Shown here in pieces: positions 19,586 through 41,449 of a stretch of DNA of 50,597 nucleotides. The notes beneath the pieces were generated by a model, which saw only the letters and a list, made by a program, of their open reading frames with translations, was not told the origin of the DNA and did no database searches. The DNA lies in sequence record OQ223306. One strand, 5' to 3'. This stretch comes from Shigella phage S2_02. The position numbers and the translations under genes were made by a program. The first letter of the stretch is position 1, and every line of letters starts with the position of its first letter.

Positions 19586-19903
19586 ATGGCTAAATTCAAT
19601 TTCGTGTTGGGCCAGCTTCCAGACTTCAAACTTCCGGTGACGTTCACCATGCCAAACGGCGAGGATGCGACTATTATTTTTACAGTACGCCACCTTTCCA
19701 GTAAAGAAGTGCAAGATATGTATGCAAAGCAGGGCGAAATGAATGATAGCGATTTCATCACTAAGATCGCGTCAGGCTGGAATCTGGAAGAAGAATTTAA
19801 CGAAGAGAATGCGCGTAAACTGGTGCAGTATTATCCTTCCGCAGCATACAATCTGACGGCAACTTACATCAAGGCGCTCGCCGGACACCGCGCAAAAAAC
19901 TAA
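19586..19903 (+). CDS. tail assembly chaperone (G-like) (105 aa)
   Basis: ORF track; position before tape measure; ends at TAA directly after slippery heptamer. Confidence 0.7.
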   Translation: MAKFNFVLGQLPDFKLPVTFTMPNGEDATIIFTVRHLSSKEVQDMYAKQGEMNDSDFITKIASGWNLEEEFNEENARKLVQYYPSAAYNLTATYIKALAGHRAKN

Positions 19904-20220: not shown

Positions 20221-20242
20221 GCCGCCGTTTGGCGGTTTTTTC
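20221..20242 (+). terminator. Hairpin + T-run between chaperone and tape measure genes
   Basis: CCGCC-gttt-GGCGG followed by T6. Confidence 0.45.
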
Positions 20243-20258
20243 GTATATAGGGGGTTAT

Positions 20259-23225
20259 ATGGTTGATAAGGTAGCAGGTCTATCTCTTGACGTTGACGTG
20301 TCAACAGTTCAGCGCGCGGTCAAGTCACTGAAAGAGTTTTCAAGGGCCAACGACCAGGCCGCTGATTCTATGGGTTCTTTAATCAATGAGGCCGAGGTTG
20401 CAAAACAGAAGGCTAAAGAACACGCAGAGCAACTCAAGCGACAGAGAAAAGAGTACGAAGCGGTAGAGAAAGCAATCGATCCTACAGTTGCAAAAATGGA
20501 GAGGTTAAAAGTTACTTCCCAGCAGCTTGATAAACTCTGGCAGCAAGGCGTTATTCCAGATGACACGTTTTTCCGTTTAGGTGAAATGCTTGAGACGCAG
20601 AATAACGCGCTCATCAAGTCACGCTCTATGTTGACAGTGGAGGGGCGTGCTGCGGCGGAGAATGCCAAGCAGAAAGCCAGGGCCAAAGTTGATGCTGATA
20701 ACTTCATTCGAAGCCTTGAGCGTCAAGCTCAAGCGGCTACGATGACGAAGCAAGAAATGCTTGAGCTTAGGGCGGCTGAGTTGGGCGTATCGGACAAAGC
20801 GTCTCCTTTGATTTCTAAGTTAAATCAGCAAACGGAAGCATTCAAACTCAGCGGAATCTCAGCGGGTCAATACCGAAACGCAATGAAGATGCTACCTGCG
20901 CAGATTACTGATGTTGTAACATCAATGGCGACTGGGATGCCGATATGGATGGTTGCCATCCAGCAGGGCGGACAGATCAGCGATTCATTCGGCGGAATTG
21001 GTAACGCGATGCAGTTAGCGAAGGATGGCGTGATTGATTATATATCATCTATTACAGAGCTTAAATCAGCATTCGCAGATGTAAGAACCTTGGGTCAAGA
21101 TGCGATTGCCAGATTCGGACGTGCGGCAACGATTTTCGGCGGCGGCATTTTCACAGCGGTTGCTGCTATTGGTTATGCGGCTTACTCCTCATACTCTGAG
21201 CTGAGTGAGCTTCAAAGAGCTATCGTTCTGAGCGGTGGATATGCGGTTCAATCAGCGGCTGAAATGGATACATTGACCGATTCGATCACCAAAAACAGCA
21301 AGGGAAGCGGAGGAGCGGTTAAGGATATCGCTGCATCCATGGCTAAGTCTGGCAAGTACACATCCGATCAAATCAAAATCATCACCGCATCCACTGCGGA
21401 TTGGGCGACAGTAACAGGAACAAGCGCAGATAAGATCATTGCGGAGTTCGATAAGATTGCAAAAGATCCGGTTAGCGGACTGGCGGAGTTAAACAAGACA
21501 TATAACTTCCTAGAGAAAGGCCAGTTAACATACATCAACAATCTTAAGAAAACGGAAGGTCAAACTGCGGCGGTTACTGCTGCGACGAAAATTTTCGCCG
21601 ATGTAATGGATGATCGAATTGAAAAGCTTGCGGAATCAGCAAACCCACTAGAGAAAATGTGGTGGAATATCAAGAAATGGTCTAGCGACGCGTGGGATTC
21701 CGTTTCCGACAGGACGCTAGGGGCGCTAAATCTGATCACCGATGTAGTTGCTGGCACGCTTGAGCAGGTCAAGGTTATCCTCAACTATGGCGATCAGTAC
21801 ATTGGGGAGTTCGTCATTTCAGCTACAAAGGCGATGCAAGGGATTCCTGGTATGGGAACTTTCGGTCAATCGGTGATCGACGAGCAGCAGAAAATTGTTG
21901 ACGCAGCCAAAAAACAAAACGATGAGTTGTCAAAATCCATCGCAGAGCGAGACGCTAGGATCAGAAAGGGGGAAATGGGCTACTCGGAAGCGAGCAAGAA
22001 TGAGAAGGTAGGAGACGGTTATTCGTCAAAAACAAAAGACGCTGTAGACAAAGAGGCCGAGGCTCTAAAAAAAGTAAACAAGGAAAAGAAATATTCAGTA
22101 GATCAGGGGAATAAAATCACCGATCAGTACGAAATGGATATTGTCGCCTTGCAGTCTCAGCTAAAAGTACTGCAGGAGCATAAGACCATCAACGACAGCA
22201 TCAGCCATCAGCGCAAAACGCAATGGAACGAGCAAGCGCGGATACTGATTCTGGAGGGTATCGCGGCGGATCAGAAAAGTAGAGCGCTGACGCAGGAAGA
22301 GAAATCAATCCTTTTAAACAAGGCCAAGATTCTAGACCTTGCGGAACAGAAAGCGGTGTTGGGGGATCAGATTGTTAAGCAGCAGCAGTTGAACGATCTT
22401 ACCGATAAATCACTGAAATTTGTTAATGATTTTACGGCAGCTACAGAGCGGCTAAACGCGTCTCGCGGGATGAGCACCCGAGAAATGGAACGGCAAGCTG
22501 AGTTGGCTAAGATCACCACTGATTATATTAATGCAGGTGGCAGCGAAGGAGACGAGAAACTTCAGAACATGATTAAGGCGCAAAATGATTACTACGCTGC
22601 GGAAGATGCCAAGCGAGCTGACTGGTTGGCAGGTGCTGAAAGTGCTTTTGCTGATTACGGTGATGCAGCAATGGATATGTACGGCAATGTTAACGAGATC
22701 GCGTCAAGTGCCCTTAACGGAATGTCAGATATGATGGTTCAATTTCTAACCACAGGAAAAGCGAACTTTGAGGACTTTGCGAAAAATATCATCGGCATGA
22801 TTATAAAGATGATTGCTCAGATGGTAATCTTCAATACGATCTCAGGCATGATGGGCGGTAAGACGTGGAGCTTTGCTGGAGGGGCGTCGTCTGGTGCTTC
22901 TGCGGCATCACAGGCAACCCCTACGCCTGCTGCTTCTGTTTTTAGATCTGTATCTTCCGGCGGGGCCGCTGTATCACTTGCTGCCGCAGCGGGTAGCGTG
23001 GCAACCTCTGGATTCAACGCATCAAACTCGGCGCCAAAGGTGGTAAACCATTCAGGAGGTGGAACAGTCGTTGATGTAAGTGGCATGGAGGTGAGAGTTG
23101 ACAACGGTTCAGATCCGAGGGGGATTTCTCAGGGTGTAGAAATGATGTTCAAAAAAATGATTCGTGAGTCTTGTTCGCAGGGCGGCGAGGTTTATAATTA
23201 CATTCAGGAAAAAACAGGAGGTTAA
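20259..23225 (+). CDS. tail tape measure protein (988 aa)
   Basis: ORF-track frame 20229..23225; ATG 20259; long Ala/Gln/Lys-rich protein with C-terminal Gly/Ala/Ser-rich hydrophobic region, downstream of G/GT. Confidence 0.85.
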
Positions 23226-40443: not shown

Positions 40444-40691
40444 TGAACGAGAAAATGACTCCGGTTAAGTTAACTGATCAAGGTTTATGGCTACTTTATC
40501 GAGCTACATGCTGCGAAATTATGGAGCAAAACGGATTGACTCAGGATGTTATTGGTTGCGATCTGTGGGAGTTCACTAGTTCTCTTGATATGTCTTTTGA
40601 TGAGATAAAAAATGAATACATTGAGAATTGGCCCTCAATCATCCAAAAAGACGTAGAAGAACTTTCTTCTGAGATAATTACGCAGCACTAA
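40443..40691 (+). CDS. hypothetical protein (82 aa)
   Basis: ORF-track frame 40398..40691; ATG 40443 overlaps dam stop (TAATG) with SD GAGGAAAG. Confidence 0.5.
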   Translation: MNEKMTPVKLTDQGLWLLYRATCCEIMEQNGLTQDVIGCDLWEFTSSLDMSFDEIKNEYIENWPSIIQKDVEELSSEIITQH

Positions 40692-40725
40692 TTGCTAAAA
40701 CTACCCGGCGAAAGTCGGGTATAGT
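40681..40725 (+). promoter_or_regulatory. Early-type promoter module: box CGCAGCACTAATTGCTAAAAC + 18 bp + TATAGT
   Basis: TATAGT 40720-40725 after hairpin ACCCG/CGGGT; CATCGA follows; box contains upstream stop TAA. Confidence 0.5.
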
Positions 40726-40757
40726 TATTTCATCGAAACGAAATGAGGAATCAGAGG

Positions 40758-40967
40758 ATGGCACGCATTAACGCAAACTTTTTCAATATCGCTCAACAGT
40801 CAGCAAAAATGGCTGTTCATATCACTGACAAGAAAGGCGGCAACTTCGATTGGGATATTGCTATGAACTTCCTTAAAATGTCTTATTACCGTTGCTCGGT
40901 TGAAGAAGTCGAAGGCCTCATCTCTGACGTGGAGAAATTAACTAATGATGATAAAAAAACAAGGTAA
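40758..40967 (+). CDS. hypothetical protein (69 aa)
   Basis: ORF-track frame 40743..40967; ATG 40758 has SD AATCAGAGG and lies downstream of predicted start. Confidence 0.5.
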   Translation: MARINANFFNIAQQSAKMAVHITDKKGGNFDWDIAMNFLKMSYYRCSVEEVEGLISDVEKLTNDDKKTR

Positions 40968-41217
40968 ACGAGAGGTTTGGGAGCACGCGAAGGAATGCGG
41001 AATCTCAGAAGATATAGCACTAATAGCGAAATATTTCGATATAAAGGATGTTAGCATTATCTCAAATGGCAAGATTTCATTTATGGAAGATATGCCGAGA
41101 AAAATGCATAGAGTTCCAGCAACTCCATCACTTGAGTTTTATCGTGAAGAAGGAAAGAGAATTGAGCGAGAACGAAAAAACGCAAAGAACAACAAGACTT
41201 CCAGGCTTAAATATTAA
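40945..41217 (+). CDS. hypothetical protein (90 aa), overlaps next ORF
   Basis: ORF track; SD GGAGA; overlaps 41048..41449 by 170 nt in another frame. Confidence 0.35.
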   Translation: MMIKKQGKREVWEHAKECGISEDIALIAKYFDIKDVSIISNGKISFMEDMPRKMHRVPATPSLEFYREEGKRIERERKNAKNNKTSRLKY

Positions 41218-41449
41218 CGAAGAAGATTACCAGACTATATGGATCGGAAATAAGCAGGTTAAGCAAATCCCTTTCTCTAACTGGTTGCCACCTGACTTTG
41301 TTAATGTGCTTTGCACTATCGGTATTGAGCAGGAGTTGCATATAGGTTACTACTCACCAGGCCGAAACAGTATGATGCTTGAGGTTGACGGAAAACTGGT
41401 TGAGTTTAAATCTTCAGATCTAGGATTCTGGTTAAAGGCTGTGGCATGA
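41048..41449 (+). CDS. hypothetical protein (133 aa as drawn); true start unclear
   Basis: ORF track; region 41218-41449 is open only in this frame; no good start after 41217. Confidence 0.35.
   Translation: MLALSQMARFHLWKICREKCIEFQQLHHLSFIVKKERELSENEKTQRTTRLPGLNINEEDYQTIWIGNKQVKQIPFSNWLPPDFVNVLCTIGIEQELHIGYYSPGRNSMMLEVDGKLVEFKSSDLGFWLKAVA

Follow-up and report, generated by a model that had tools for sequence, protein, structure and literature searches.

Two small overlapping reading frames of the T1-like Shigella phage S2_02, which share a slippery A_AAA_AAC heptamer, appear to be two separately translated genes of an ordinary kind, the second initiated at a TTG codon; we put the probability of this reading at about 0.82. 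The window is the whole stretch of DNA that was analysed, 50,597 nucleotides of sequence record OQ223306. Comparative evidence supports a 90-aa product of the first frame (ORF1) and a 95-aa, TTG-initiated product of the second (ORF2; Table 1), and recoding events of all kinds, taken together, are improbable. The two-gene layout as such is already known, being that of the orf17 region of phage T1 as annotated. The only mildly new point is an apparent move of the ORF2 start codon after the loss of an ancestral ATG.

Table 1 Features of the ORF1/ORF2 locus (positions in the window)
Feature	Positions	Strand	Description
ORF1	40945..41217	+	ATG 40945 to TAA 41217; small early protein, 90 aa; phrog_2817
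Shine-Dalgarno (SD) AAGGA of ORF2	41150..41154	+	7-nt spacer to the TTG; within ORF1 codons E-G-K; RBS annotated in T1
TTG, proposed ORF2 start codon	41162..41164	+	TTG in 23 of 24 distinct Tunavirus sequences, ATG in one (ISF001)
ORF2	41162..41449	+	95 aa, T1 orf17 homologue; phrog_4596; TTG 41162 most likely start, TGA 41449 end
ORF1/ORF2 overlap	41162..41217	+	56 nt; selection changes from the ORF1 to the ORF2 frame within it
Heptamer A_AAA_AAC	41175..41181	+	(R)KN in ORF1, (E)KT in ORF2; incidental
ACA, relic of the ancestral ORF2 ATG	41189..41191	+	matches the ATG of IME-JL8 and contig L026, counting from LPGL; ACG in T1
TAA ending the -1 frame	41208..41210	+	reached after a slip at the heptamer

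The locus and its relatives

The locus belongs to a Tunavirus (T1-like) phage of the Drexlerviridae: over the 791 bases around the site, it shares 92-95% identity with some 60 Tunavirus genomes, T1, Shfl1, Lg3 and ADB-2 among them. ORF1 and ORF2 lie in a run of small genes with a Dam methylase on one side and an SbcD-like exonuclease on the other. The comparisons below rest on 24 distinct Tunavirus sequences, 22 of them intact, and on 16 sequences in a first comparison.

In the curated T1 record (AY216660.1), CPTT1_062 (273 nt) and CPTT1_063 (orf17, 288 nt; 40456..40743 in T1, protein AAP49982.1) are annotated as overlapping CDSs, each with its own RBS, and map exactly onto ORF1 and ORF2. The T1 locus has the same layout at 93% nucleotide identity, including the TTG start of the second gene and the 56-nt overlap, but reads GAAAATC at the position of the heptamer, has an in-phase A_AAA_AAC 9 nt downstream, and carries ACG in place of ACA at the start relic. 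The locus is annotated in the same way in SA32RD, Lg3 and XJA18. A literature search on T1 reannotation and Tunavirus frameshifting found nothing relevant.

ORF1 is preceded by the SD sequence GGAG (anti-SD duplex energy -6.4 kcal/mol). Its core is conserved over residues 1 to ~75, whereas the Lys/Asn-rich tail (~41176-41214) is variable, and 40945-41161 has accumulated 39 synonymous and 9 non-synonymous substitutions in the ORF1 frame. The ISF001 record (NC_047863) has a premature TAG at ORF1 codon 5 (equivalent to 40957-40959) and leaves ORF1 unannotated; this record shows many non-synonymous differences from its relatives and is of uncertain sequence quality. The upstream small gene (40743-40967) overlaps ORF1 by 23 nt and probably starts at ATG 40758, as in T1, behind the SD sequence GAGGA (-6.3 kcal/mol); the first ATG in the ORF-finder listing, ATG 40743, reaches an anti-SD energy of only +0.1 kcal/mol. 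The overlap of this gene with the start of ORF1 contains an A7 run (40952-40958, ATAAAAAAAC) that holds another AAAAAAC copy (40954-40960). T1 has A6 followed by G at this site, and the frames of S2_02 agree here with those of the relatives.

No function could be assigned to either ORF: searches of Pfam and PHROGs returned no Pfam family above threshold, a sub-threshold match to DUF7334, and PHROG families of unknown function only, and a PDB profile search with both ORFs found no relative with an E-value below 0.08.

Initiation of ORF2

The first-pass annotation was right that the ORF2 frame has no good start after 41217. Upstream of this position, however, it weighed only ATG codons, and the overlap of 170 nt that it reported shrinks to 56 nt with the best start, TTG 41162, which it missed. 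The anti-SD duplex of this TTG, at -5.7 kcal/mol, is comparable to those of the neighbouring genes, namely, ORF1, the upstream gene from ATG 40758 (values above), and the exonuclease (-5.9 kcal/mol). The values for the other candidate ORF2 starts, in kcal/mol, are +0.3 for ATG 41048, -3.4 for ATG 41066, +1.2 for TTG 41132, -2.2 for GTG 41144, +0.1 for ACA 41189 and -2.5 for ATT 41213. The SD of ORF2 is kept in all 24 relatives, with A/G at 41151 as the sole variation, and the product is called as 95 aa in 14 of the 17 protein clusters found by search. The locus shows the sequence-level marks of an independently initiated overlapping gene: a start upstream of conserved coding sequence, an SD at 5-9 nt, and conservation of the start and the SD. 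A pattern scan of IMG/VR around the TTG returned the same 13 Tunavirus genomes and chance purine-rich matches only.

Within the SD and the TTG (41154-41163), four third positions of ORF1 codons are invariant. Their conservation does not significantly exceed that of ORF1 in general, in which 43% of the third positions vary and longer invariant runs are present, so the conservation of the SD and the TTG could reflect constraint on ORF1. The preference for TTG 41162 over ATG 41048 is accordingly based on the strength of the SD, the TTG-to-ATG change in ISF001, and parsimony, rather than on a test of selection. TTG is a weaker initiator than ATG. Given these comparisons, we infer that ribosomes start at TTG 41162.

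The substitution pattern among the 22 intact Tunavirus sequences bears on where the coding of ORF2 begins. In the body of ORF2 (41218-41449), there are 49 synonymous and 45 non-synonymous substitutions in the ORF2 frame (25 and 69, respectively, in the ORF1 frame). Between 41048 and 41161, all 20 substitutions are non-synonymous in the ORF2 frame (Fisher p = 6e-6 compared with the ORF2 body) and 17 of the 20 are synonymous in ORF1, so that nothing upstream of 41162 looks coding in the ORF2 frame. The leader, 41162-41197, varies in both frames (8 synonymous and 12 non-synonymous in ORF1, 4 and 16 in ORF2) and gives no sign of purifying selection on ORF2. Conservation of ORF2 sets in at LPGL (41198): in 41198-41217, the counts are 2 synonymous and 3 non-synonymous in ORF1, and 4 and 1 in ORF2. 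Because four of these five changes are synonymous in ORF2, the LPGLN codons (41198-41212) are translated, which places the start upstream of 41198. Reinitiation at ATT 41213, in an ATTAA that overlaps the ORF1 stop, was considered and rejected, given that the LPGLN codons upstream of this ATT are under ORF2-frame constraint and that proteins of the ORF2 family have LPGL as their conserved N-terminal motif.

An overlapping gene was among the options listed in the first-pass annotation, and this was the correct kind of answer; the starts proposed for it, ATG 41048 (133 aa) or ATG 41066, fare less well. All 16 Tunavirus sequences of the first comparison have ATG 41048 and an ORF2 frame that is open from 41045, and the 133-aa form is both represented among the protein clusters (P0002) and annotated in LeonhardEuler and ULIM2. 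Nevertheless, ATG 41048 has no SD, the AAGG nearby being just 1 nt from the ATG, whereas ATG 41066, also with a weak SD, is found in only 3 of the 16 sequences. In addition to the uniformly non-synonymous substitutions upstream of 41162, the N-terminal extension is absent from every homologue outside Tunavirus, and the records that use the 133-aa start leave out the well-conserved ORF1. Initiation at either ATG is therefore unlikely, although it is the best-surviving of the alternatives.

Ancestral arrangement and probable relocation of the start codon

More distant members of the Drexlerviridae suggest how the TTG start arose. Rogue1 (gp55/gp56), Ec_L1 (gp05/gp06), GaoY1-9D and LF82-19 encode homologues of the two proteins, arranged in the same order and likewise flanked by the Dam methylase and the SbcD-like exonuclease. 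In contrast to S2_02, the two genes in these phages overlap by only 4 nt (ATGA), the second starts with an ATG at M-x-LPGL (MNLPGL or MSLPGL), and both the ORF1 tail and the ORF2 leader are missing. These are two clearly separate genes, the pattern in homologues that the first-pass annotation had given as refuting its reading. The MNLPGL of HazelMika is likewise headed by an ATG, but the annotated start of this gene is a GTG further upstream. In IME-JL8 (Sertoctavirus) and the metagenomic contig L026, ORF1 is ~10 residues longer and the overlap is 29 nt, with ORF2 still started by ATG (MANLPGL and MLNLPGL, respectively). The ATG of these two sequences falls at the position of ACA 41189, which implies that Tunavirus lost the ancestral start. 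Upstream of LPGL, the only conserved canonical start with an SD is the TTG, 27 nt before the ACA.

The protein-level searches agree with this picture. An exhaustive HMMER search for ORF2 among 1.84 billion protein cluster representatives yielded 16 relatives: 15 stand alone, with lengths of 78-97 aa, and one is a weak, probably spurious match within a 1947-aa protein. Residues 1-5 of the relatives typically align with query residues 11-15, where the homology sets in. In none of the 16 is an ORF1-like domain fused to the ORF2 relative, and a synthetic ORF1-ORF2 fusion used as a database query retrieved no protein spanning both halves. One 132-aa cluster (P0017) is an error-ridden chimera that combines ORF1 with the upstream gene.

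The most likely scenario, judging from these alignments, is that the start codon moved once the ancestral ATG had been lost. In the ancestral state, which persists elsewhere in the Drexlerviridae, translation of ORF2 from M-x-LPGL was coupled to the ORF1 stop through the ATGA overlap. In the Tunavirinae, the ORF1 stop then shifted 29 nt downstream, and in Tunavirus, the old ORF2 ATG changed to ACR, with initiation probably moving to the TTG 27 nt upstream. Such a move would have given ORF2 its poorly conserved leader of ~10 residues and produced the 56-nt overlap. Under this scenario, ORF2 would be translated by ordinary SD-directed initiation at TTG 41162 and end at TGA 41449, giving the 95-aa protein.

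Could a frameshift replace the lost start?

A programmed slip (+1 or -2) that fuses ORF1 to ORF2 could also have made up for the loss of the ancestral ATG. It would take place in the A-rich stretch, with tRNA-Lys passing from AAA at 41176-78 to AAA at 41177-79, for instance. On the A6 run, tRNA-Lys can indeed re-pair perfectly in the +1 frame, and the frame of selection changes exactly within 41175-41197, which a fusion would produce as well. However, there is no shift site in 41175-41197 common to the 24 relatives, 9 of which lack the A6 run (e.g., CGAAAGAACGCAAAGAAC), and no +1 re-pairing is possible on the conserved AAG NCT TCC that precedes LPGL. Programmed +1 frameshifting of the prfB type relies on a conserved shift site that carries a stop or a slow codon in frame and is preceded by an SD at 3 nt. 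The locus resembles prfB only in its downstream frame, which is +1: it has no conserved shift site with such a codon, the run has neither a stop nor a rare codon in the A site, an SD at 3 nt is lacking, and the homologues are encoded by separate genes. No fused homologue is found among the 1.84 billion cluster representatives, the distant relatives all make two proteins, and a conserved canonical SD with a TTG is available for ORF2. The +1 event proposed in the first-pass annotation thus finds neither a conserved shift site nor a fused homologue, and we consider it quite improbable, decidedly more so than initiation at an upstream ATG.

A weaker version of this idea concerns only those Tunavirus phages, S2_02 among them, whose overlap contains an A6 run: occasional +1 slips of tRNA-Lys on A_AAA_AAC might yield a minor ORF1-ORF2 fusion of ~167 aa beside the two proteins. 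This version is if anything slightly less probable still. Were it to occur, it would be a lineage-specific, recently arisen case of recoding that followed the loss of the ancestral ATG.

The AAAAAAC heptamer

The sequence confirms that the heptamer AAAAAAC lies at 41175-41181, inside the frames 40945-41217 and 41048-41449, the second of which is in the +1 frame relative to the first. The stretch 41170-41185 is gaacgAAAAAACgcaa, where ORF1 reads CGA AAA AAC, giving the phase A_AAA_AAC. A -1 slip would append KRKEQQDFQA before the TAA at 41208-41210, that is, 10 codons; the early stop was recognized in the first-pass annotation, which counted 9 codons. It was also correct that simple -1 frameshifting does not join the two ORFs, given that the -1 frame ends at this TAA and ORF2 is in the +1 frame.

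A functional -1 site would accordingly provide ORF1 with an alternative C-terminus only. In favour of such a site, the in-phase heptamer matches that of the genuine tail assembly chaperone site exactly, and 15 of the 24 relatives have A_AAA_AAC in phase with ORF1, 4 of them at this site and 11 at a site 9 nt downstream. Against such a role, the motif is missing in the remaining 9, which read, for example, CGAAAGAACGC, CGAAAAGCAGC or CGAAAAACAGC, and an alignment of ORF1 homologues places the heptamer in the tail that is absent outside the Tunavirinae. The 89 nt downstream (41182-41270) fold like shuffled sequence (MFE -7.7 compared with a shuffle mean of -8.5 kcal/mol, z = 0.30), with no sign of a stimulatory RNA structure, and there is no SD at ~10 nt upstream of the heptamer, the nearest SD-like element ending 20 nt upstream. 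Of the attributes of a programmed -1 site, only the in-phase X_XXY_YYZ is present; a coding extension, a stimulator, and conservation in relatives are all lacking. Furthermore, Lys-Asn after a codon ending in A gives the motif trivially in A-rich sequence. A -1 function for this heptamer is very unlikely, somewhat more so than the +1 slip.

The first-pass annotation had pointed to a chaperone site with the same heptamer elsewhere in the window, and this site is real: AAAAAAC at 19894-19900 is in phase, one codon before the stop of the ORF at 19586-19903, and the -1 frame is open for 107 codons from there (to ~20217), up to the tape-measure ORF at 20229-23225. By its sequence, this is a textbook -1 frameshift site of a lambda-type tail assembly chaperone (G/GT). 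At 41175, the identical in-phase heptamer leads into a -1 frame of only 10 codons, at a site that relatives do not conserve.

Both strands of the window together contain 24 copies of AAAAAAC, 14 of them on the + strand, compared with 14.6 ± 3.7 expected from dinucleotide-preserving shuffles, none of which reached 24; this mild enrichment probably stems from a preference for AAA and AAC codons. About a third of the copies are expected to be in phase by chance. With 24 copies present and a tail that is A-rich and Lys/Asn-rich, the heptamer in ORF1 is unremarkable. It results by chance from the AAA AAC codons for Lys-Asn in the variable, basic tail of ORF1 and plays no part in recoding.

The last of the alternatives, in which an erroneous indel in the A6 run splits one real gene in this assembly, can be dismissed: dropping one A would fuse ORF1 and ORF2, and Sfin-2 and Sfin-6 do have 1-nt deletions in nearby A runs, but all 22 intact independent relatives share the length and the two-frame layout, many of them being non-homopolymeric at this position, the distant relatives have two genes, and the databases searched contain no fused protein, which together refute this suggestion of the first-pass annotation.

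Public annotations and implications

ORF2 has been annotated in at least six ways in GenBank records of T1-like phages, with products of 133, 95, 54, 47, 41 and 37 aa, and ORF1 is sometimes absent. The 95-aa form is found in T1, Lg3, SA32RD, XJA18, LHE71 and ISF001, and the 133-aa form, without ORF1, in LeonhardEuler and ULIM2. A 54-aa form is annotated in SH2 and phi2457T, a 47-aa form in a T1 isolate (MN153797), and the 41-aa and 37-aa forms in the deletion-bearing Sfin-6 and Sfin-2, respectively. In both Sfin-2 (MK972831) and Sfin-6 (MN393473), an A run within ORF2 has lost one nucleotide. Sfin-2 has a second such deletion, in the A6 run of the overlap, which results in an annotated 132-aa ORF1-ORF2 chimera. 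The sites affected in these two records are equivalent to ~41185-41190 and ~41248-41252, and the deletions disrupt the reading of both ORFs. From the sequences, these deletions are probably homopolymer sequencing errors.

The biological weight of the heptamer is small: an in-phase slippery sequence within a gene overlap can be pure coincidence, and a search for starts that is limited to ATG creates seemingly orphan reading frames. The apparent move of the ORF2 start codon after the loss of the ATG would account for the disagreement among the public annotations of this gene across the T1-like phages.
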